Shown here: piece by piece, positions 7,138 through 37,309 of the stretch
How positions within the stretch are numbered: position 1 is the first letter of the stretch
How the letters are laid out: each line of letters begins with the position of its first letter
IMG/VR virus record: IMGVR_UViG_3300045988_171288
DNA from: a virus
Length of the DNA: 37,309 bases
Direction: 5' to 3' (one strand)
The notes under the pieces: model-generated
Told to the model about the DNA's origin: nothing
The model's database searches: none
The model's input: only the letters and a program-made list of their open reading frames with translations
Made by a program: the position numbers and the translations under genes

Positions 7138-7239
7138 ATGAGCTTAAATTATTTAGGATATGGATTATTGATAGTTCCTGCTATTTTAGTTGTTGCTGGA
7201 GTGATATGGTGTTACTTAGTTGCTAATGATTATATATAA
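7138..7239 (+). CDS. 33-aa membrane peptide
   Basis: My own translation: MSLNYLGYGLLIVPAILVVAGVIWCYLVANDYI. RBS GAGGTGA lies 5 nt upstream. Confidence 0.45.
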   Translation: MSLNYLGYGLLIVPAILVVAGVIWCYLVANDYI

Positions 7240-7272
7240 AAAGTAGTAGGAAGTGAATCCTACTACTTTTTA
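7238..7272. terminator. Bidirectional terminator
   Basis: AAGTAGTAGGA / TCCTACTACTT 11-bp stem flanked by an A-run and a T-run. It sits between convergent genes. Confidence 0.75.
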
Positions 7273-7302
7273 TATAATTTAAAATAATTTAATTTTTTTC
7301 AC

Positions 7303-11793: not shown

Positions 11794-11812
11794 TTTTTAC
11801 TCCTTTCTAATA

Positions 11813-11856
11813 TAAAAAAGAGCAATCTTTATCTATTTATAAAGATTGCTCTTTTT
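11813..11856. terminator. Strong hairpin inside the tail fibre gene string
   Basis: 15-bp stem AAAGAGCAATCTTTA / TAAAGATTGCTCTTT with an A-run and a T-run on either side. Confidence 0.7.
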
Positions 11857-11861
11857 CATTA

Positions 11862-14071: not shown

Positions 14072-14133
14072 AAATACACATCTCCTTTCTATCAAAATAA
14101 AAATGAGCAATCAAATCCGTTAATAAATCGAAT

Positions 14134-16593
14134 TTATTGCTCATTTTTTATAACTTTATAAAAAGTCTTATTTCTTTCTTCTTCATATCCTTTACGTTTA
14201 GCAGTTACAACATATTTAAACGTGAAATCTTTTCTATCTGATTCAACTATAAAATAATCTTTAGTTTGTTCTTTTATTCTATAATCTCCCCAGCCTTGTT
14301 TTATAACTTCTACTGTATAATTTAAATCTAAGTTAACACTTTCTTTAAATATATTATCTAATAAAATTACTCTTTCATAAGATCCTGTACTAGTTTCTTC
14401 TACTGTAAATACTTCCATACTTCTATCTGTTAGATAAGATTCACAATCTTCAACTGAATAATATAAAACATCACCATATTTTTCTGTTGATTGAACACAG
14501 TTTTTATTACCATTTACAGTAAAGTTTCCATTGATGTGTAAACCTAAATCTGATTGAATTGTATTCGCAGTAGTTGTATATAAAATATAATTATTTCCTT
14601 TCCAGAATGAGAATCCATTTGGAGAACAAGAGAAGTATTTTCTACCATTGCTACCAAAAAATGTTTCATCTTCTGATATTAAACTATATCTATTACTAGT
14701 TTTTGTATTATATAAATTTAATTCATTTTTATCAAGGAGTAGCCTATTATTAACAGAGTCCGTTTCTCTTATAATAAATTTATTTTTAAGTTTGATTACA
14801 AAATTATTGTTATCAGAGTTATATATTGAGTTTATATTATGTCCAAACCATAACTGGCTACCTTTAAATTCAGTTTCTTCAAATATAGTGATTGGAGCGG
14901 GTGTAATATTATCTATATTGTCTTTATCGAATCTCATATAACCATAAAAAGAATTATTTCTTTCATATGCAAGAGATAAGTAACTATTAGTTTTGTTAGC
15001 TACAACTATTCCAGGGATATTTTCATTACCGTTCATTCTTGATGAATAAACTTGTCCAATAACATCATCTCCATCCCAATTATAGAATTTCATAGTTGTT
15101 CCAGACAGTTCTATTGCATTTTTACCTTTATATTTAGTTATAATACCTTTTGAGCCACTAAGATCTATTTGTAAACTTCCATCTTTGTTTTGAATTAATA
15201 TAGCACTTAATACACCTGTTGAAACTAAACTTGCATTTATAACTCCATCTATTGTAAATCCATATTGATACGGTCCAGCATACCCCGTTTTAGAAAATCC
15301 TAATCCATTTTTATTTAATCTGATTACATTTCTTGCAGCATTTAAATCTTTATTATCTGCAACTATAATTTCATTTTGACGAGGTATAACATAACTATCA
15401 TTTACTCCAGCGTTGATCATAGATTGAATAACATCTTGTAAGTTATTGTTATTACTATTAGATATAATACTTTGTAACTCTGATAAAATATCACTTGTTG
15501 TTATAGATTTCTTAGATATATCAGTATTAGATAATTCTATCTCAAGAACCCTTTGTCTTAATACATCATATTTTCTTCTTATAACTCTTACATTTATATT
15601 TATATTATGTTTTTCTTCATAAACAGATACTGTGTCTCCTATATATACTCTTTCTGCTTGTATATATTCTTTATACTCTTCAGTTTGTTCTAAATATATA
15701 AAATTAATTCTATAACTTGCTTTTAACTCATCAATATGATTTTCAGCAAACTCTAATTTTGCTCTTCTTATTAATTCATCCTGTGCTTCTTTCAATGTGT
15801 CATATCCATCATCAGGGTTATTGTCACTTTTTAATTTTACATCATCATACTTAATTTCTTTTGTTTTTACTGAACTGTATTTATAAATTAAAGGACTATC
15901 AATATAAGAATCTATTGATATACCATCAAACCCAACAGGTTTTATTCTAGTAACTACATTATCTATATCTGTATTAGCTTCAAATCCACTTAGATTTTTC
16001 CTTGATCTTATTTCTACTCCTCTATTTTGACCGATCCTTTTATTTATAGTAAGATTATATCCTCTTCTTAATACTTCTCCACCCCATCTGTTTAAAAATG
16101 ATTGATCACAATCATGTATAGCTTTATACATACTCATTCTTTGATAATATGCAGTAGAAGAATTATTTATATCAGAAAATACTTCTATATCTTTTTTACC
16201 GATAGAATTATTTTTTAAATCTGTAAGAGCAGCTAGTCCACTTGTATTAGTTGGTCTTATATCTTCAATCCACATATCTAATGTTTCAGAGATAGTTATT
16301 TGTCTAGCAAAAACTATAACATCTCGTGTTCCTTTTGATATTTTTGCTATTCTAAATATTTCTTCACCATAATCTAGAGTTACTTTTAATATAAACTCCT
16401 CTACTATATTTTTATATAAGCCTTCTTTATCAACTTTAAATGTAGCATCAAGTACATAATCTCCATCTAAACCTTCATCTACTTCACATTTTATACATAT
16501 ATTATCTAATATAGTGTCACCATTTCCCATTAAGACTTGGCTAGGAGTGCAATTTTTATCAAATATACATATTTTAATTATTTTTTTATTCAA
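14134..16593 (-). CDS. Tail-associated lysin / prophage tail endopeptidase-type Tal
   Basis: 819 aa, placed directly after Dit and the tape measure. The N-terminal part resembles siphovirus Tal proteins. Confidence 0.7.
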   Translation of the reverse strand: MNKKIIKICIFDKNCTPSQVLMGNGDTILDNICIKCEVDEGLDGDYVLDATFKVDKEGLYKNIVEEFILKVTLDYGEEIFRIAKISKGTRDVIVFARQITISETLDMWIEDIRPTNTSGLAALTDLKNNSIGKKDIEVFSDINNSSTAYYQRMSMYKAIHDCDQSFLNRWGGEVLRRGYNLTINKRIGQNRGVEIRSRKNLSGFEANTDIDNVVTRIKPVGFDGISIDSYIDSPLIYKYSSVKTKEIKYDDVKLKSDNNPDDGYDTLKEAQDELIRRAKLEFAENHIDELKASYRINFIYLEQTEEYKEYIQAERVYIGDTVSVYEEKHNININVRVIRRKYDVLRQRVLEIELSNTDISKKSITTSDILSELQSIISNSNNNNLQDVIQSMINAGVNDSYVIPRQNEIIVADNKDLNAARNVIRLNKNGLGFSKTGYAGPYQYGFTIDGVINASLVSTGVLSAILIQNKDGSLQIDLSGSKGIITKYKGKNAIELSGTTMKFYNWDGDDVIGQVYSSRMNGNENIPGIVVANKTNSYLSLAYERNNSFYGYMRFDKDNIDNITPAPITIFEETEFKGSQLWFGHNINSIYNSDNNNFVIKLKNKFIIRETDSVNNRLLLDKNELNLYNTKTSNRYSLISEDETFFGSNGRKYFSCSPNGFSFWKGNNYILYTTTANTIQSDLGLHINGNFTVNGNKNCVQSTEKYGDVLYYSVEDCESYLTDRSMEVFTVEETSTGSYERVILLDNIFKESVNLDLNYTVEVIKQGWGDYRIKEQTKDYFIVESDRKDFTFKYVVTAKRKGYEEERNKTFYKVIKNEQ

Positions 16594-17305: not shown

Positions 17306-20300
17306 TTATGGAATAACTCTCCTTCCTAAGCTATAGTTAGTAAATTCATCTTGATACGGTGCTATAGTTCTAGTTAACTCTCGACCATCCATTATAACTT
17401 TAGGATTATCTAAATTTGTTTGTATGATAGCACTTTTAAATGACTCTGTAATAAGATTATAGTCTATAGCAAAATTAGCCATTTCTTCTTTTATATATGT
17501 TCTTAAATTTGATATAGGTAGAATTGCTTCAGGTCCTGCTTCTCCTCCAACCATAGCATTATTACCATTTAGACCAAACATAGTAGGTCTTGTCATTATA
17601 CCACCATTTTTATACCATTCTATACCAAAATTTGGAACACTCGGTGGGTTAAGACTAAATCCACCTCTTATTTTAAAATGTGGCATTTTTATTTTTGGTA
17701 ATTCCCATTTAAAGTTAAACAAATCTTTGAGTTTATCAACACCTTTTTTAACAACATCTTTTATAGTTTCCCATTTTTCAGTAGTATTAGTTTTTATTTC
17801 ATCCCATTTATTAGAAATTGTGCTTTTTATACTTCCAAATCTACTAGAAGCCTCTATTTTAATATTATTCCATTTATCAGATAAATTAGTTTTAATATTA
17901 TCCCACTTTTCAGTAGCATTAATTTTCATCTCATTCCATTTATCAGAAATTGAGTTTTTTATTAGATTAAATTTTTCAGTAGCACTATTTTTAACTTCAT
18001 TCCATTTAGTACTTAAATTATCTTTAATTTCATTCCATTTTATAGAAGCAGTATCTTTTATATTATTCCAGGTATCACTAAAAAATGTTATCATTGGTCC
18101 AAATATTTCACTTAATTTAGAACTTATTTCATTCCATTTATCAGATAACCATTGTTTTATAAAATCCCAAACTTCTATAACAATATCCTTGCAATTTTCC
18201 CAAATAAATTTATATGGTAAAGTTATTATATCAAATGCAAAACTTAAAATTTCGCCAATTAATAAAATTCCTACTTCTACAAAATTGCATATATTATCCC
18301 ATGCTTCTTTAGTCCATTGACATATTGAGTTCCAACCATCACTAAACCATGTTTTTAAACTTTCAAACCATGACGGGATTGTTTCTGTAAAGAAACTAAC
18401 AATTAAATTCCATGAGTCTATAAAAAACGTCTTTATATTCTCCCATAAACCAATCCAAAAATTACGAAAATCATCTGAAGTAGTCCATAAAGTAATAAAT
18501 GCAGCTACTAACCCAGCTATAGCCATTACAACAAGTCCTATTGGATTAGAAATTAATTCTAAGTTTAAAAGACTTTGAGCTATTGTGGCCGCCTCATTAG
18601 CTGTTTTAAATGCTTTTATAGCACCTACTAATCCAGTTATTGTATTTATAACTTTCCATGTAACAAATGCTGCTCCTATACCAGATATTAAAGAAAGAAT
18701 TGTAGGACCATTATTAACTACAAAACTCACAAATTCACCTATTTTTTCTGCAATTTGACTAACAATATCTTTTATAGCTGGAGCATTATTTTGAACATAT
18801 GTAATAGCCTCTTCAACTACAGGTTTTAATTCTTCACCTAATGGCTCTGCTATATCAACTTTAATAGTTCGTCCTAATCCTTCTAAAGCCGAACCTATAT
18901 TATCATATTTTTGATTGTTTATATCTTCTAACGCTGAGCTAGTCTTATTAATCTCACCTTGTATATCCATAAGTGACTTAATACCTTCTGCTCCTAAATC
19001 TTCCCACATTGTACCAAATAATTCTATTCCAAGAAGATTTTGCTTAACAGGATCATTCATATTAAATAAAGCTTGTGTTATATCGTTTAATGCATTTTTA
19101 GCTGATTCTCCACCTTCTCCAAACTTTTTAGTTGTTTCATCTACATCAAATCCAAGTTCCTTAAATGCATTTTCTGCTGTTCCATCTTTAACTCTTATTC
19201 CAAATTCTTTTACTGCATCTCCTAATTTATCTACTGAAAATGTTCCATTTTTTGCACCATTTACAAGCATATTAAACATTTCTTCTGAATCAATGCCAAG
19301 CTGTTTAAAATGAACAGAATACTCATTTATAGTATCCAATAAATCTCCATTTTTATCTAATCCAGCCTGAGCACCTTGAACTATTAAATTATATGCTTCT
19401 TCTGAAGAGACTCCAAATTGATCCATTAACATTTTAGCTGTTCTAGTTGATTCATTGACTTCAAATTCAAATGTATCTCTTAATAATAATGCTCTCTCTG
19501 TAGCTTTTTCAAGCTCTGTTCCAGCTAAATTAGTATTTATTTTAACTGTTGCCATACTTTGAGCTACATCTTCAATAGACTCTCCAAAATTATTTTTATA
19601 TACATTTTCCATTGATGTATTTAAACTATCAAATTCCTCTTTACTTGCACCAGTTTTAGTTATTAATGTATTAAATGCTTTGTCAAAATCATCTGATAAT
19701 TTTACAGCATATGTAGCTCCTGCTAGTGTTGCTGCTCCAATCGCAAAAATACTAGTTCCAATATTTTTTGCAGTTTCTTTCAACTCTTCTTTTTGTTTTT
19801 CAATTTCTTCAGTTGCTTGTTTTACAGCTTCTGCATGTCTTTTTTGTTCTTCTTGAGCATTTTTTAAAGCTTCCTTTTCAGCTTCAAGTGCATTTTTTTG
19901 TTCTTTTAAAGCTTTTTCAAGTTTTTCAGCTTCTTGTTTTGCTACACCGTTGTTGTCACCAAACTCTTTTAAGTTTCTTGTAGCTACATCTAGTGTAGAT
20001 TTAATTGTATTTAATTCATTTTCAGTTTTAACAATTTCTCTTTGAAAAGCTCTATATTGCTCCTCTGCTATCTCACCTTTTTCAAATTGAGCTTGAACTT
20101 GTACTTGAGCATTTTTTAAAGCTTTTAATTTTTCTTCTGTTGTCTCTACTGACTTACTTAAAATAGTTTGTTTTTGTGCTAGTAGCTCTGTATTAGTAGG
20201 ATCAAACTTTAAAAGTCTTTCTATCTGTCTAAGTTCTACTTGCAAGGATCTACTTCTTTTATTTACATCTTCAAGAGCCTTATCTAGCGGTCCAGTATTA

Positions 20301-26084: not shown

Positions 26085-27815
26085 TTATTTTTTCCATCCC
26101 ATTTTAGATAAGTAGTTATCAAGTTCTGACTTAACATTTACTACTTCTTTGCTTCTATTTTTCATCATAACAGTATGTGCATCTATAGCAGCATCAACAG
26201 GATCTATTCTTTTAAACTTAGCTCTTGGCTCTTTATCTACTTTCATTTCTCCAAATGAGTTTTTTACAATCTTAGCATTTGTAAAACTCCATGTAAGTAG
26301 TTCATTATTTTTGTCATATTCAACTTTTTTAGATTTTACAGCTAACTTAATATCCTCTGTTGCATCATGTAAAAATTTAGCTGATTGAGTTACTAATAAT
26401 ATAGGACATCCAAATGATTCTAATTCACTCATTATCCCATCGGCATTATGTGGATCTAACCCTATACCTAAAAATTGTAAATTATACTTTTCTTTTAATT
26501 CTTTTAAGTGTTTGATTATGAACATATAATCATTTTTATAATCTCCACTTCCACCTGTTACTGTAATTAATTTCATTTGTTCCCATAAATCGTATGGTGC
26601 TAAATCTGTTTCTATATGTTCTTCTAACCTGCCTCGTGGCATAAATGAATGACTATAAAAGTAATAATTTTCATCAGGTTCTTCAAATTCAAGACATAAA
26701 GTTGTTAAATCTCCTCCTGAACTTAAATCTAATCCAACCCAACAAGCTCTATTTCTAAAACTTTCAAGTGTTCTTTTACTTCCACACTCTTCCCATCTTG
26801 AAACATCTATGAATTGGTCATCATTATTTTGGACCCACATATTTAAGCATTTTATTAAAAAGTCTCTTAAATCGCTTCCTCCCATATCTCTAGCTGTATT
26901 TGCATCAATTCTAAGAGTTTCTAATCCTTGTTTTGTAGATGCTAAAAATGGATTTGCTTTTATCCAATTTTTTTCATCCCATATATCATCTTCTTTATCA
27001 AGACAATATATATCAACAAAAAAATCCTCCGCAGTAGTTATACCTCGAAGGATTTTTATACAATAATCATCCATTTCTTTGCAGAAACTATTTAATTTAT
27101 CACCTCTTGTAGTTATCATGCTTACTAAAGTTTCAGGAAGTGATCTTGTTCCATTATATATTGCTTTGTATATTTTATTATCTTTATGTTGATGTAGCTC
27201 ATCTATTGAGCTATATATAGATCTAAATCCATCGTCAAGACCAGCTTCTTTTGATAAAGCTTCTATAGTACAATTTGTTTTTAAGGCTGTTATTAAAGAT
27301 TTATAATCTTGAACTTTAAATAATACATCTAAATCATCATCTATTGTTATAAACTTAGCCATTTCCTCCCAAGCTAGTCTAGCTTGTCTTTTTTTAGTAG
27401 CAACAGTAAATAACTTACCAAACATATATCCTTCAAATCCAGCTACATATGTTCCAGTTATACCATTTTCAAAAGTTTTTCCATTTTGTCTAGCCATAGA
27501 TTTATATTTACGTCTAAATCTGCGTTTTCCATTCTCACACTTTCTCCATCCAAAAGGAACTGCTAAATCAAATGCTTGACAATCTAGTAATCTAACTGGT
27601 TTAGGTTCAGAGCCCTCCGCTATTATTAATGTTTCAGCATATTCAATTATTCTATTAGCTTTTTCAACATCCCAATAGTATGGAAACTCATCTGTATTTT
27701 GCTTTTTTAAGTCATTTAAATGTCTTTTACAAGCAAGTATATGTAATTCTCCAACTACATACTCTCCATCTATAACCCTTTTAGCATATTCCGTTACTCT
27801 ATCTCTCATTATCAC
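26085..27815 (-). CDS. terL: Terminase large subunit
   Basis: 576 aa. Position, size, and overlap with the terS stop codon. Confidence 0.9.
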   Translation of the reverse strand: MIMRDRVTEYAKRVIDGEYVVGELHILACKRHLNDLKKQNTDEFPYYWDVEKANRIIEYAETLIIAEGSEPKPVRLLDCQAFDLAVPFGWRKCENGKRRFRRKYKSMARQNGKTFENGITGTYVAGFEGYMFGKLFTVATKKRQARLAWEEMAKFITIDDDLDVLFKVQDYKSLITALKTNCTIEALSKEAGLDDGFRSIYSSIDELHQHKDNKIYKAIYNGTRSLPETLVSMITTRGDKLNSFCKEMDDYCIKILRGITTAEDFFVDIYCLDKEDDIWDEKNWIKANPFLASTKQGLETLRIDANTARDMGGSDLRDFLIKCLNMWVQNNDDQFIDVSRWEECGSKRTLESFRNRACWVGLDLSSGGDLTTLCLEFEEPDENYYFYSHSFMPRGRLEEHIETDLAPYDLWEQMKLITVTGGSGDYKNDYMFIIKHLKELKEKYNLQFLGIGLDPHNADGIMSELESFGCPILLVTQSAKFLHDATEDIKLAVKSKKVEYDKNNELLTWSFTNAKIVKNSFGEMKVDKEPRAKFKRIDPVDAAIDAHTVMMKNRSKEVVNVKSELDNYLSKMGWKK

Positions 27816-28276
27816 GCTCCAAATTTAGAAAATTTATTTTTCTTAGGTTCTTCAGGTGGTTTAGGAACTACTAATTTACATCTACTAGATATAGTTAAGC
27901 CTAAATCTATAGCATGACTTCTACATTGTTTTGCATGTCTATCTTCTAATATAGATAATTTATTATACTCTTCAAAATCAACCAAAGGATCAAGTTCTAT
28001 CAATTTATCTGAAACTTTAGTATAATTGCTAAATGCTCTTACATACATAGCTAATGAGTTACAATCTATATTCGCCATTATATCTAACTCAATTAATTCA
28101 TTTGCTATCTTTTTGAATTCTTTTTTTTCATCTTTTGTTAAATTTTTTGGTGGCTTTATATTATCAGATTTAGCTTTCACTTCTGAGTTTTTACGTTGCT
28201 CAATCTCAGCTTTTGTAAGGTGTTTATTACCTTTTGCTATAATTAATTCAATTGGTTGTCTTTGACCAGCCACCAT
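27812..28276 (-). CDS. terS: Terminase small subunit (P27-like)
   Basis: ATG at 28276 lies 4-5 nt after AGGAGGTG. The sequence KGNKHLTKAEIEQR..KKEFKKIANEL fits P27-type terS. Confidence 0.75.
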   Translation of the reverse strand: MVAGQRQPIELIIAKGNKHLTKAEIEQRKNSEVKAKSDNIKPPKNLTKDEKKEFKKIANELIELDIMANIDCNSLAMYVRAFSNYTKVSDKLIELDPLVDFEEYNKLSILEDRHAKQCRSHAIDLGLTISSRCKLVVPKPPEEPKKNKFSKFGA

Positions 28277-28437
28277 AAACACCTCCTTTTTTTTTAAATT
28301 TCTCCGTGGGGAGTTTTTTCTACAGAGAACTCCCCTTGTATCGTTATCCCCAAAATGCCTCATAGAATTTTACCCACCCCTACCCTTGTAGAGGCTACTT
28401 AGAGGCTTTATATTTTAAATTACGATACACTCCATTA
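28277..28437. other. Candidate cos / packaging recognition region
   Basis: Lies between HNH and terS and is locally GC-rich. Inverted repeat GGGGAGTT (28308-28315) / AACTCCCC (28328-28335). CCCTTGTA occurs twice and TAGAGGCT occurs twice, 11 bp apart. Confidence 0.4.
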
Positions 28438-28842
28438 TTAATACTTTCTTCGTCTTATATTCCTTTTAAATCGATTGTGCTCATTGTTATGACAGTCTAA
28501 ACATAACGCTTTTAGGTTGTTATAATCTAATCTTCTTTCCCATCCTTCATCTGTTTTTATAGGAATTTTGTGGTGTACTTCACTAGCTATAGCTCCACAT
28601 ACTTCACATTTATATCCTTTATCCGCCATATATTTTGGTGCTAATCTTATCTTCCAATCAGGACTATTATAAAAATTCGTGTATTTAGGATCTCTTTTCT
28701 TATTATATTTTTTATTAGCTTCTTTGCTATATTTTTTATTAACTTCTTCTTTTTCTTTATCTTTAATTTCTTTACAAACTTCACAATATGTATTAGGATA
28801 TTTAATTATTTTTTTACATCTTCTACACAATTTATCTAACAT
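28438..28842 (-). CDS. HNH endonuclease (terminase-associated)
   Basis: CEVCG...EVHHKIP...LCLDCHNNEH. N-terminal CxxC pairs. Confidence 0.85.
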   Translation of the reverse strand: MLDKLCRRCKKIIKYPNTYCEVCKEIKDKEKEEVNKKYSKEANKKYNKKRDPKYTNFYNSPDWKIRLAPKYMADKGYKCEVCGAIASEVHHKIPIKTDEGWERRLDYNNLKALCLDCHNNEHNRFKRNIRRRKY

Positions 28843-29135
28843 ACTTCAAATTTTTCTTCAAAATCATCAGATTTCATAGTTCTTATTCTATGCTTTTGAT
28901 TATGTGTCTCTTTTATTACATAATCACCTACCTCTACTTTCTGATACCCTTTAGTCCCTCTATCGAATATCAATAATACAGGTTCTTTATCATCTATATC
29001 ATTCATTGCTAATAGAGCTATATCTTCTTTTATTGCATCTTCTAGCCATTTATTATTATTTATTGTTTCTATCTTTTCATCCCATTTTACAGCTTCTATT
29101 ATTTCTGATTTTTTTCTATACTTCATCTTTATCAA
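28836..29135 (-). CDS. Hypothetical protein, first gene of the late block
   Basis: ORF in operon context. Confidence 0.6.
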   Translation of the reverse strand: MIKMKYRKKSEIIEAVKWDEKIETINNNKWLEDAIKEDIALLAMNDIDDKEPVLLIFDRGTKGYQKVEVGDYVIKETHNQKHRIRTMKSDDFEEKFEVC

Positions 29136-29206
29136 TCCTTTTATTTATATTTTTACAAAATAAAAAAACTAGATTTCTCTAGCCATAATATTTCTCCTAT
29201 TGCAAT

Positions 29207-29260
29207 AAAAAAGGCAAGTCAGTTTATTACAATATATAATCAACTTAACTTGCCTTTTTT
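29207..29260. terminator. Long hairpin terminator (bidirectional)
   Basis: AAAAAAGGCAAGT (29207-29219) / ACTTGCCTTTTTT (29248-29260). Confidence 0.6.
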
Positions 29261-29347
29261 ATTTAGCTTATTATTTTGTTATATCAGTTTTTTAAAGAGG
29301 TACATCTAATTATGCGTTTAGTGAATATCACATCTTTCGACACTACT

Positions 29348-29376
29348 ATATTACCTTATTTTTATATGTAGTTTCC
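29348..29376 (-). promoter_or_regulatory. Candidate activator-dependent promoter with a weak -35
   Basis: On the minus strand: GGAAAC (29376->29371), 17 nt, TAATAT (29353->29348). The repeat array abuts the -35. Confidence 0.3.
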
Positions 29377-29382
29377 AGTCCA

Positions 29383-29437
29383 TTTTTTCGTCATTTTTCC
29401 GTCACTTTTTCGTCATTTTTTCGTCATTTTTCCGTCA
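29383..29437. repeat. Five exact-phase 11-bp tandem repeats TTTTT(T/C)CGTCA
   Basis: Units at 29383, 29394, 29405, 29416 and 29427. On the minus strand the unit reads TGACG(G/A)AAAAA. Confidence 0.9.
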
Positions 29438-29444
29438 TATTTAG

Positions 29445-29912
29445 CTACTTTTTTACTGATTCCATTCCATATTTCATAAAAGCTATTTCTTTTAATGCCC
29501 AGCGTTCATATCTTCTAACTGTACTTTCTGTTAGATTTAATTTTTCTGCTACAAATTCATATGCTTCAAATTTATTATATCTATTATTATAAACATATCT
29601 AGTTTCAATAACTTTCTTTGATACATCCTCTAATCTATCTAATATGTTTTCAAATCGCTCCCTATCACTTTCTAAATCTTCTATTTCATTAGATAGTTTT
29701 TCAATTTCTTGTTCTCTTTCTAAAATTAAATCATCTATGCCTTTTATATTTCTTGTTGTACTATTACCTGTCAGTCCTCTAGCTCTTCTACCTTCTAAGT
29801 CTTTACTTAGGATCTCTAAGTCTTTTTTTAGTGCATCTAGTCTTTTAACCTTATTGCCCTCTTCTTCAACATATATCATTGCTTTTGCTATGTAGTCATT
29901 TTTAATATCCAT
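29445..29912 (-). CDS. ArpU/RinA-like late transcription regulator (sigma-70 region-4-like C-terminus)
   Basis: C-terminus VIETRYVYNN..FVAEKLNLTESTVRRYERWALKEIA. It is the last early gene before the packaging genes. Confidence 0.6.
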   Translation of the reverse strand: MDIKNDYIAKAMIYVEEEGNKVKRLDALKKDLEILSKDLEGRRARGLTGNSTTRNIKGIDDLILEREQEIEKLSNEIEDLESDRERFENILDRLEDVSKKVIETRYVYNNRYNKFEAYEFVAEKLNLTESTVRRYERWALKEIAFMKYGMESVKK

Positions 29913-29934
29913 CAAACGTTCCCCCTTTAAGTTG

Positions 29935-30294
29935 TTATAATTTAATATATTTTTCTATCGTTTCTTTAGCTTCTTCAAATCCATTACAGACTACAGCTTT
30001 ATATCCTTGCTCATTCAGTTTATTAATCCATTCTCTTTGTGTTCTTCCGTTTCCATATTTCATTTCTATATATAAACCATGATAATTTCTTCGAGGAACT
30101 GGAAGGCATAAGTCAGGAACTCCCTTTTTTAAACCTTCTCTTTTCAGCTTCTTACCTTGATAATTACTTCTTTTACCTTCGTTAGGTATATGATATATAA
30201 GTGATAGCTCTGGATATATGCAGACATTTATATTACACCAGTCTATTAATGCCATTTGTTCTGTAGATTCGCTTCTTTTCATATTTCTATACAT
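29935..30294 (-). CDS. VRR-NUC domain nuclease
   Basis: GVPDLCLPVP...GLYIEMKYGNGRTQREW pattern. Confidence 0.7.
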   Translation of the reverse strand: MYRNMKRSESTEQMALIDWCNINVCIYPELSLIYHIPNEGKRSNYQGKKLKREGLKKGVPDLCLPVPRRNYHGLYIEMKYGNGRTQREWINKLNEQGYKAVVCNGFEEAKETIEKYIKL

Positions 30295-30296
30295 TT

Positions 30297-30521
30297 TTAA
30301 TATTCTACCTTTTCTATTTTTAAGAATCTAAATTCTTCATTTATTTTTTCTACTTCTATCTTACAACTTCCTAAAATTTTGCCTAGTTCATGACAGAACT
30401 CTGTTCTATTCTTTTCTAATTCTTCAAATTCATCTATATTTATACTCATACTTACACATATGAATTCTTGTTCTTTATATTGTTTTATGCAATTTAAGAT
30501 ATTTTCTAATTTTATGTTCAT
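30297..30521 (-). CDS. Hypothetical protein
   Basis: ORF packed within the operon. Confidence 0.55.
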   Translation of the reverse strand: MNIKLENILNCIKQYKEQEFICVSMSINIDEFEELEKNRTEFCHELGKILGSCKIEVEKINEEFRFLKIEKVEY

Positions 30522-33648: not shown

Positions 33649-33846
33649 TTAATAACCTAAAGTTTCATATGGAACTTCTATACCTATTATTTGAGCGTCT
33701 AAGGCTTTTCTAGTTCCACTTTGAATATTTGTATTAAATACTTTACATTTGTTTCTACAAGCCGATTTATGCTCTTTATTTCCTATATAATTTTCACAGA
33801 AGCCATCTTCTGACAATTTAAACTTTTCGCATTTATTTTTCGTCAT
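33649..33846 (-). CDS. Cys-rich hypothetical protein
   Basis: RBS GAGAGGT. Contains 4 Cys residues. Confidence 0.55.
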   Translation of the reverse strand: MTKNKCEKFKLSEDGFCENYIGNKEHKSACRNKCKVFNTNIQSGTRKALDAQIIGIEVPYETLGY

Positions 33847-35768: not shown

Positions 35769-36125
35769 ATGAATAATAGAATAAAACAAGCAAGAAAAAA
35801 ATTAAATCTTACACAAAAAAAATTCGGTGAAAACCTAAACTTAAGCGAATCTCATATATCTAATTTAGAAAAAGGACGAGTTAATCTTACAGCTCGAAAT
35901 ATAGATGATATATGCTCTACTTATAACATTAATCAAGTTTGGCTAGAAACTGGAGAAGGTGATATTTTTTCAGAACTTACAAAAGATGATGAATTTAACA
36001 TTTTGGTAGGTAAATTAGTGGCAGAAGAAGATAGTTTTAAGAAAAAAGTTATAGAAGAGATGCTAAAATTAGATGATGAAGATTGGCTATTCATAGAAAA
36101 GTTTGTAAGTAAAATAAAGAGCTAG
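35769..36125 (+). CDS. XRE-family HTH repressor (CI-like, no S24 peptidase domain)
   Basis: IKQARKKLNLTQKKFGENLNLSESHISNLEKGR is a classic HTH_3 sequence. Divergent from the early operon. Confidence 0.8.
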   Translation: MNNRIKQARKKLNLTQKKFGENLNLSESHISNLEKGRVNLTARNIDDICSTYNINQVWLETGEGDIFSELTKDDEFNILVGKLVAEEDSFKKKVIEEMLKLDDEDWLFIEKFVSKIKS

Positions 36126-36152
36126 ATATATTATCTAGCTCTTTATTTTTAT
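36113..36152. terminator. Bidirectional terminator overlapping the repressor stop codon
   Basis: AAAGAGCTAGAT / ATCTAGCTCTTT stem, followed by a T-run. Confidence 0.7.
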
Positions 36153-37253: not shown

Positions 37254-37309
37254 ACCCCCAGTATCTTGAGATATCACCCCCCAGTATCTTGAGATATCAC
37301 CCCCCAGTA
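37254..37309. repeat. Same 23-bp tandem repeat as at 1-55 (11-bp partial plus about 2 copies)
   Basis: 37265-37309 is identical to 1-45. A partial unit ACCCCCAGTAT lies at 37254-37264. Confidence 0.85.

Follow-up and report, generated by a model that had tools for sequence, protein, structure and literature searches.

The DNA ahead of the packaging genes in this viral genome raises the question of how late genes can be switched on when the promoter that lies before them appears to fire into a terminator. The window, by which we mean the whole 37,309-nt stretch analysed (IMG/VR virus record IMGVR_UViG_3300045988_171288), carries on its minus strand a gap of 318 nt (29444-29127) between the stop codon of a late regulator gene and the ATG of orf96, the first gene after the leader. 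In this gap an array of 11-bp repeats, a core promoter, a leader and a predicted intrinsic terminator follow one another. The best explanation, which taken as a whole we consider rather probable, is that the locus represents an Ltr-type late-promoter cassette in which a regulator-activated promoter would fire into a terminator and the late genes would depend on polymerases that cross it. The phage itself would be a temperate siphophage of the HNH/cos type from gut Peptostreptococcaceae, with Romboutsia, Terrisporobacter or Intestinibacter as the probable host. The original prediction, made from the sequence of the window without database searches, had described activator sites, a promoter, a short terminated leader and late genes in this order, and the same order is kept in seven lineages.

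Repeat array and core promoter

The array, recognized by pattern matching, TRF and reading, consists of five 11-bp units of the form (A/G)TGACG(G/A)AAAA at 29384-29438 on the minus strand and begins 6 nt past the regulator stop codon. The five exact-phase repeats predicted at this place were recovered independently of reading: a pattern scan with TGACGRAAAA gave five exact matches with 11-bp spacing (29437-29384), and TRF reported a period of 11, 5.6 copies and a score of 96. From 29438 to 29384, the units are ATGACGGAAAA, ATGACGAAAAA, ATGACGAAAAA, GTGACGGAAAA and ATGACGAAAAA. The pattern matched exactly at one further place only, where TGACGAAAAA (33836-33845) opens a coding sequence, ATGACGAAAAAT..., and this match was rejected as an array site. 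Next to the array lies a sixth, degenerate, promoter-proximal unit, ATGGACTGGAAAC (29371-29383, minus strand), which overlaps the weak -35 region and offers the -35 either as TGGAAA, 18 nt from the -10, or as GGAAAC (29376-29371), 17 nt from the -10. The -10 hexamer itself is TAATAT (29348-29353, minus strand), and the promoter-like GGAAAC-17-TAATAT of the original prediction is therefore present as described. In a natural variant of the cassette (L027), ACTTGAAAC in the proximal unit gives a better -35, TTGAAA.

Two nucleotides after the -10 lies a second hexamer, TAGTGT (29340-29345, minus strand), which probably holds the start site, at G 29343 or 29341. Given a predicted start near 29341, the array spans about -97 to -43 and the core of the proximal unit -41 to -37. 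The phased A5-6 tracts suggest that the DNA is curved, and the unit cores TGAC, TGGAC and TGAAC resemble the -35 consensus TTGACA, which would suit a region-4-like reader. We presume that the array is the operator of the regulator. A generic sigma-70 promoter/terminator scan listed neither the late promoter nor the main terminator, the former because its -35 is too poor and the latter because it has a long loop with an internal bulge; we therefore relied on comparative conservation and on our own hairpin scan of both strands.

Conservation of the cassette among relatives

Relatives of the regulator are few: they fell into seven clusters in a word-indexed search and into only 32 representative clusters in a HMMER profile search of 1.84 billion representatives. 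Viral and metagenome contigs held mostly near-identical copies of the cassette, and a search of genome contigs for wider relatives returned nothing. Loci were recovered for regulators 99, 79, 79, 74, 65 and 60% identical, and in the seven lineages so represented (regulator 60-99% identical) the same order and geometry were found directly after the stop codon. Specifically, three to ten units of 11 bp, occasionally 12 bp, each with a terminal A-tract, start no more than a few nucleotides past the stop. The conserved proximal unit comes next, as (G/A)AACTGGAAA or one of its variants, AACTGGTAA and AACTAGTAA, and then, past 17-18 nt of variable spacer, TAAnAT and the hexamer TAnTRT. The leader that follows is poorly conserved; its T-run hairpin, present in every lineage, ends 100-141 nt from the -10. 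Invariant columns of the seven-lineage alignment cluster on ACTnGnAA in the proximal unit, on TAAnAT (T, A, A, A and T), and on T1, A2, T4 and T6 of the second hexamer. In diverged relatives, three to six units of different sequence occupy the same place.

The unit sequences vary by lineage, reading ATGRRCGAAAA, GYGACGAAATC, NNGRRCTAAAA, GTGACTAAAAY and GTGTGRAAATC, and co-vary with the recognition-helix region of the regulator, RWALKE regulators accompanying ACGAAA-type units and RWGLKE regulators ACTAAAA-type units, in a sample that is small and confounded by phylogeny. The copy number is also polymorphic among near-identical phages, five units being usual and ten being found in L003/L016 (IMGVR_UViG_3300045988_169381), an otherwise 99% identical phage. 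The terminator, in turn, differs in sequence from lineage to lineage at the same relative position, suggesting that the feature is maintained through sequence turnover. Nothing downstream of it is conserved between lineages.

BLAST alignments to relatives broke at 29207 (L001), at 29178 (L003, L004 and L026-28) and at 29340-29348 (72-75% relatives), homology to the last group stopping at the second hexamer. These breaks indicate that the mobile unit comprises the regulator gene, the array and the core promoter, together with the leader and terminator in close relatives, and the sequence downstream of this unit appears to be interchangeable.

Leader, terminator and recombination joint

With the start predicted at about 29341 and the ATG of orf96 at 29126, the leader is about 215 nt long, close to the length of about 200 nt first proposed; the position then given for the first late gene, 29135, is that of an upstream in-frame TTG. 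The first part of the leader (29261-29339, minus strand) is A/U-rich and without conserved structure, and Rfam found nothing in it. The predicted intrinsic terminator follows at 29207-29260 (minus strand), with a stem at 29254-29213, an A-run at 29260-29255 and a T-run at 29212-29207, pairing of the two runs extending the stem from 29260. The stem has a folding free energy (dG) of -15.6 kcal/mol, the leader a folding z of -4.4 and the T-run six residues, in support of the long hairpin originally predicted here. Our scan ranked it in the top four by strength of all hairpin-plus-T-run sites on this strand of the 37-kb window, and its strength matches that of the terminators at operon ends in this genome. 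About 90 nt separate the second hexamer from the hairpin, and the predicted short RNA would measure about 130-135 nt. There is no room for a terminator between the regulator stop and the array, so that the main hairpin must also end the early operon.

Several relatives leave no space for another promoter. In L003, L004, L027 and other complete genomes of ~38 kb (regulator 99% identical), AGGAG begins 8 nt past the T-run and the ATG 20 nt past it, and no TAnnnT hexamer was found between the T-run and the next ATG in L003, L004 and L027. The late genes of these three phages must therefore be transcribed across the terminator. In the window itself, the generic scan found no sigma-A-like or promoter-like site between the terminator and orf96.

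We also considered a riboswitch-like or translation-coupled attenuator and rejected it, the leader and its folds showing no complement to the 5' arm of the terminator and no open reading frame (ORF) with a ribosome-binding site (RBS). An Rfam search of 28300-30400 at a permissive threshold gave only chance microRNA-like matches to the hairpin and no riboswitch or leader family. A small 5' leader hairpin (ATAGC/GCTAT; GTAGC/GCTAC in L021) and a TCACTAAA motif occur in some lineages only, and no conserved leader RNA element was found across the seven-lineage alignment, the folds and Rfam.

Past the terminator, an RBS (AGGAG, 29198-29194) and a five-codon remnant, ATGGCTAGAGAAATCTAG (MAREI and a stop, 29186-29169), together occupying 29169-29198 on the minus strand, were identified from the alignment, the ORF starts of relatives and the BLAST break at 29178. 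This stub is the decapitated start of a 137-141-aa gene (MARLISCSVC...) that is found after the terminator in close relatives and is replaced in the window from the fourth codon on. The second hairpin with a T-run of the original prediction does exist (CTAGA-gaaa-TCTAG, 29162-29182, minus strand; stem 29182-29169, T7 29168-29162) and is weak (6 bp, z = -2.1). It is not conserved, being absent from relatives and sitting at the recombination joint, and is, as judged from the alignments, a lineage-specific by-product of that joint. L001 shows a third arrangement, with a different second hairpin of its own ahead of the HNH RBS.

The regulator protein

The regulator gene (ORF at 29445-29915, minus strand) encodes 156 aa. 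The product had been called ArpU-like, but it scored below the cut-offs of both the ArpU model (TIGR01637, 14.4 vs 43.1 bits) and the RinA model (TIGR01636, 23.8 vs 31.9 bits). The name would apply at superfamily level only, and the protein resembles family II (LtrA) of Quiles-Puchalt by domain type only. Residues 92-143 matched Pfam Sigma70_r4 (PF04545) with 23.4 bits vs a cut-off of 24.1, and the protein matched phrog_36, a 'transcriptional regulator', at 2.4e-13. Among ten of its HMMER relatives, which match Sigma70_r4 in the corresponding place, four exceed the cut-off, and one additionally gives a marginal match to DUF1492. The AlphaFold2 model (pLDDT 81) shows two long antiparallel helices (residues 4-45 and 55-93) followed by a three-helix C-terminal domain of the helix-turn-helix type. 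In local Foldseek comparisons, the top matches were to the -35-binding region 4 of sigma factors, e.g. 3hug_K, with a probability of 0.98. The protein is acidic, with an isoelectric point (pI) of 5.37, and its C-terminal domain is basic (pI 9.2). A search of PDB sequences with the family profile gave no matches, and no similarity to Q families or other known antiterminators was found in Pfam, NCBIfam, PDB sequences or Foldseek. Going by domain matches and the predicted fold, the most fitting description of the protein is that of a late regulator of sigma-70 region-4 type, from a rare sigma region-4/coiled-coil lineage.

Gene context in the window

The window is a circular-looking phage contig of ~37.25 kb, bases 1-55 recurring at 37255-37309; the identical 55-bp ends correspond to 2.4 copies of a 23-bp unit and are most simply explained as the assembly overlap of a circular or circularly permuted genome of ~37.25 kb. 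The VRR-NUC gene (29935-30294), directly before the regulator gene, the regulator gene as the last of the early/replication operon, and the late genes are all on the minus strand. The latter comprise orf96 (28836-29126; 96 aa, ATG at 29126, phrog_419 of unknown function), an HNH endonuclease gene (28438-28842), terS (27812-28363) and terL (26085-27815), with the portal gene next. The regulator gene is the last before the packaging cluster (HNH/terS/terL), on the same strand, and this order is identical in all relatives. Elsewhere in the window, strong palindromic hairpins with T-runs on both strands at 7234-7275, 11811-11860, 14095-14152 and 36110-36150 are candidate bidirectional terminators marking operon boundaries. 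Tandem repeats with periods of 33, 66 and 132 bp nested in one another were also noted in the late region (17758-18060), presumably inside a tail gene, with 60-77% matches and about 2-7 copies.

Late-promoter regions of other phages

RinA, ArpU, LtrA, LtrB and LtrC have been described as the sole phage proteins needed to activate terS and the late operon, the classes being RinA (phi11, 80alpha), LtrC (phi55), ArpU (phiFL2A), LtrA (Sigma70_r4 type) and LtrB (DUF1492) (PMC3152322, PMC3753634). For RinA, LtrC and ArpU phages it has been published that direct repeats adjoin the ltr stop codon and that the ltr-terS gap contains a terminator; the repeats are necessary and sufficient for Ltr specificity, and the terminator was deduced because readthrough from Pcad was undetectable without the regulator, expression being high with Ltr (PMC3753634, PMC3152322). 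In the published view this terminator lies between the ltr gene and a downstream terS promoter, and 5' rapid amplification of cDNA ends (RACE) gave ends 23-28 nt before terS in phi11, 80alpha and phi55 and 118 nt before it in phiFL2A (PMC3152322, PMC3753634). RinA, moreover, needs DNA >155 bp upstream of the mapped start, beyond a terminator, and its mechanism was judged 'more complex' than contact with an adjacent polymerase (PMC3152322). The original prediction had held that the layout in the window is unusual for RinA/ArpU-type systems. This view had to be given up in the light of the published repeats and terminator, and of the hairpins with T-runs that we found ahead of the first late gene in seven model phages, namely 80alpha, phi13, phiFL2A, phiFL4A, phiCD6356, JD033 and TP901-1.

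In phi13, an S. aureus phage of the Sa3int group, the Ltr repeats lie at -107 to -42 of a start mapped genome-wide, the P23 TATA box is essential by mutation, and the word 'terminator' has 0 occurrences in the paper (PMC13123087). In TP901-1, the repeats for Alt are cited as occupying -76 to -32 relative to the start. The array and proximal unit of the window, at -97 to -37, match the phi13 repeat geometry and that cited for Alt, and the position of TAATAT is homologous to that of the validated P23 TATA box. After its 18-bp repeats, phi13 reads TATAAT-TG-CTGTGT-AGCAAAA, and L021, a relative of the window, reads TAATAT-GG-TATTGT-AGCAAAA; from the published -107/-42 coordinates, TSS23 falls inside the second hexamer of phi13. 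A hairpin of 9-10 bp with a T-run stands about 25 nt before the first late gene in the phi13 leader, which is about 75 nt long.

The ArpU phage phiFL2A (L035, NC_013643) has three TTGGCGG boxes with 11-bp spacing, then 21 nt, then TAATATAGTAATATCGAAAG, which is identical to TAATATAGTAGTGTCGAAAG of the window at 20/22 bases. Its arpU-terS gap of 795 nt ends with a hairpin (dG -13.4) with a T-run immediately before the terS RBS. Since a tRNA-Arg gene (14629-14703) has its 3' end only 2 nt before the published 5' end (14705), the latter is very probably a processing end. The RinA phage 80alpha has TATTAT-GA-TAGTGT (L032 263-276) 20 nt downstream of two TGGCAGT boxes, and a hairpin (dG -13.2) with a T6 run lies 89 nt after this core, the RACE end falling 19 nt past the T-run. 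When the 80alpha rinA-terS region was compared by megablast with all phage records, partial matches covered 1-284 only (phage 29, ROSA, phiETA3 and others), and a second mosaic group matched 263-420 only (Mh4, 713, SAP2, TEM126 and others). The 22-bp overlap, TATTATGATAGTGTAGGATATT (L032 263-284), which contains the double hexamer, is therefore the only segment common to the two groups. The double hexamer also lies inside the experimentally defined 59-nt 'specificity block' of 80alpha. Several Kwan-type phage GenBank records are linearised just upstream of TATTATGATAGTGTAGGATATT.

Similar clues were observed in the remaining phages. In phiCD6356 and JD033, whose regulator is 31% identical to that of the window, we found TG-T-TAGAAT-TG-TATCAT; a T-run hairpin stands about 80 nt after this core, directly ahead of the next RBS. 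In the LtrA phage phiFL4A, the gap is only 86 nt, and a 12-bp hairpin with a T6 run ends 25 nt before the terS ATG. In TP901-1 (L033, NC_002747), the leader is about 480 nt and contains tRNA genes for Lys-ttt (2135-2209) and Ala-cgc (2289-2376), located with ARAGORN, with a hairpin and T-run just before the terS RBS. A -10/NN/TAnTRT core beside the repeats is thus not confined to the window family, being present also in 80alpha, phiFL2A, phi13 and phiCD6356, and all Ltr-type systems examined show the same succession of repeats, core promoter, leader and terminator-like hairpin, an arrangement that appears to be general. Matches to the TAWWATNNTANTRT motif numbered 5 in the window against 4.5 expected, about once per 15 kb per strand; the sole match in the 7-kb 80alpha locus and one of the two matches in the 36-kb phiFL2A genome are those beside the repeats. 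We take this as supportive and made no formal test, because the motif was defined after the family was seen. The TAnTRT start-site hexamer is conserved across unrelated regulators and host genera in the Ltr systems examined, and the bases after the hexamer are also common to some pairs of systems (CGAAAG in the window and phiFL2A, AGCAAAA in L021 and phi13).

The literature searched yielded no paper on Ltr antitermination or on a terminator inside the late leader. The order of promoter first and terminator second is absent from the papers found. The repeats themselves are operators of a kind already known from the Ltr late activators (RinA, ArpU, LtrA-C and Alt).

Proposed mechanism

These data can be assembled into the following model. 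The regulator would be made from the last early gene as a sigma region-4-like DNA-binding domain on a coiled-coil stalk, and would bind the phased 11-bp units, each a -35-like TGAC/TGGAC core with an A-tract, cooperatively along a single face of the curved DNA, between about -97 and -37. In this way it would bring the host RNA polymerase to a promoter whose -10 is good and whose -35 is poor, in a class II-like manner as for phi13 Ltr and TP901-1 Alt, intrinsic curvature from the phased A-tracts helping activation. Transcription would start near 29341 and meet the strong intrinsic terminator about 130 nt on, and the early operon would stop at the same terminator. The genes from orf96 through HNH, terS, terL, portal and onward would then be expressed only by polymerases crossing the terminator, and two options may be envisaged for the crossing: (a) passive leakage from a very strong activated promoter may suffice, or (b) polymerases from the late promoter may be made terminator-resistant by the regulator, as in lambda Q logic.

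Several observations weigh against this model. A strong terminator within a highly expressed late operon is costly unless overridden. The published 5' ends of phi11, 80alpha and phi55 lie downstream of the terminator, the 80alpha RNA had been pre-treated to remove processed ends (PMC3152322, PMC3753634), and in these three phages a promoter after the terminator remains the published model. The pI of 5.4 of the regulator differs from that of the basic Ltr proteins described, and no similarity to phi13 Ltr or phiFL4A LtrA was detectable, so that the transfer of function rests on position, fold and cis-layout. In one relative, L012 (ERZ24911154 NODE_11315, coverage 1.5), about 42 nt are deleted, leaving it without the -10, the second hexamer and the 5' leader hairpin; the deletion is flanked by short direct repeats (tataaa / tataca), and L012 may be a defective copy or an assembly error.

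Alternative explanations

The original prediction had drawn attention to lambda PR'/tR'/Q logic, and Q-like regulated readthrough is plausible in that it is compatible with everything seen. As a definite explanation, active promoter-coupled antitermination, in which polymerases from the late promoter would be resistant, those of the early operon would stop, and the second hexamer would serve as a loading or pause site, is a possibility that we entertain with some doubt. It would account for an order of promoter, terminator and late genes that is kept through full turnover of the terminator sequence, for a terminator equal in strength to those at operon ends, and for the absence of Pcad readthrough without Ltr beside high expression with it. 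It would also give a role to an otherwise unexplained second -10-like hexamer that is invariant at four positions and common to unrelated Ltr systems. Sigma region 4 contacts the beta-flap at the RNA exit channel, and the sigma region-4-like domain of the regulator may be a module of this kind. However, the regulator resembles neither Q families nor other known antiterminators, the array lies upstream of the -35 in the position of a classical activator, and the second hexamer, at about -4 to +2, differs from known sigma-dependent pause elements, which lie further downstream in the initial transcribed region. In addition, the leader yielded no conserved RNA element, and antitermination has not been proposed in any paper found. 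Extended to the whole group, the idea would be that Ltr-type regulators (RinA, ArpU, LtrA-C and the window family) are more than plain activators: their promoters, all abutting the repeats and sharing the -10/NN/TAnTRT core, would fire into an intrinsic terminator, to which the regulator loaded at the promoter would make polymerase resistant. Such proteins would be functional counterparts of lambda Q in Gram-positive systems, with a sigma region-4 fold as their basis. The 'start sites' published for phi11, 80alpha and phiFL2A, further downstream, would be processing ends, and the need of RinA for DNA >155 bp upstream would be resolved. We regard this extension as comparably tentative.

The published staphylococcal model would have the terminator end the early operon only, with the true late promoter downstream of it and activated from a distance, and the array-adjacent promoter silent or making a short RNA. 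For the window we consider this unlikely. The RACE ends of phi11, 80alpha and phi55, 23-28 nt upstream of terS and past the terminator, speak for it, as do L006 and L009, where 112 nt separate the T-run from the ATG and promoter-like hexamers are present. In L003, L004, L027, phiFL4A and phiCD6356, however, this space is 15-25 nt and holds no -10-like hexamer, and the region past the terminator is the one in which nothing is conserved between lineages. Furthermore, the phi13 start adjoins the repeats upstream of the phi13 hairpin, the phiFL2A 'start site' is probably the processing end of a tRNA, and the 80alpha RACE end would require a promoter buried in a terminator arm.

It is very unlikely that the array represents curved, UP-element-like A-tracts boosting a constitutive promoter via the alpha subunits to make a small RNA of ~130 nt, with the regulator acting elsewhere. 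The A4-6 tracts are indeed the most constant part of the unit in every lineage, and phased A-tracts stimulate transcription at C. perfringens plc, but the non-A half is equally conserved within the array and changes with the regulator. Repeats at the same position are proven specificity determinants in the RinA, LtrC, ArpU and phi13 systems, and the poorly conserved leader argues against a functional small RNA. Finally, an array that is phased, predicted to be curved and upstream of the packaging genes might suggest a packaging (terS/cos) or replication site, a reading that we reject as extremely improbable because the array is co-inherited with the regulator gene and not with terS or HNH, and keeps a fixed register to the conserved -10, and against which it also counts that in HNH/cos phages (HK97-like, phi12-like) cos is expected between HNH and terS.

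Implications

Ltr-type regulators control the transduction of virulence genes and pathogenicity islands. The window family displays, in an unusually clean form, a conserved promoter touching the operator array, with the terminator lying within the late leader. Some relatives leave no place for any other promoter, and in 80alpha and phiFL2A the same core adjoins the boxes of RinA and ArpU, respectively. If the regulator-activated promoter does fire into the terminator, late-gene control would include an obligatory terminator-crossing step, a new point of regulation (e.g. for satellite interference or host factors), some published start sites would need revisiting, and the puzzle of RinA acting over >155 bp and a terminator would receive a concrete, testable answer.

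Comparison with known systems

Among known systems, the Ltr modules are the closest in kind, and the element of the window is an unusually regular example of an Ltr late promoter. In both, a small regulator is the last early gene, repeats follow its stop codon, a terminator lies in the gap and a -10/NN/TAnTRT core is present; a C-terminal sigma region-4-like part would read the repeats, and gene, repeats and core promoter are exchanged as a mosaic block. They differ in that the units of the window are 11 bp long with A-tracts and number 5-10 copies, whereas the published repeats are 7 nt long and number 2-4, and in that the regulator is acidic (pI 5.4) with a long coiled-coil N-terminus, whereas the published proteins are small and basic (about 130 aa, pI > 8). 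The regulator, moreover, stays below the cut-offs of the RinA and ArpU models, no resemblance in sequence to phiFL4A LtrA could be detected, and the papers put the late promoter after the terminator, whereas the conserved promoter of the window stands before it. With phi13, the window shares the downstream order of an unknown ORF, HNH, terS and terL and a hairpin with a T-run in the leader; the phi13 repeats, however, are 18 bp long and overlap the gene end. The regulators of phi13 and TP901-1 (Alt being DUF722) are unrelated in sequence to that of the window, and TP901-1 differs further by its leader of about 480 nt with two tRNA genes.

The likeness to phased A-tract and UP-element promoters is in an A-tract at each helical turn upstream of the -35 and in predicted curvature, C. 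perfringens plc being a clostridial example and phi29 late promoter A3, which p4 activates in a bending-dependent manner, a phage one. In contrast to these, the units of the window family carry a core that co-varies with lineage (TGACG, TGGAC, GTGAC, GGACT), as expected of a protein operator. With lambda PR'/tR'/Q, the window has in common a promoter directly after the regulator gene, a predicted short, terminated leader (about 130 nt, the lambda 6S leader RNA being about 190 nt), one long late operon and a second -10-like hexamer near the promoter. However, the putative sites of the window form an upstream array, whereas the Q site lies between the -35 and the -10; the -10-like element of the window is at the start site, about -4 to +2, whereas that of lambda is at +1 to +6 or further downstream; and the promoter of the window looks activator-dependent rather than constitutive, with a regulator that has no similarity to Q.

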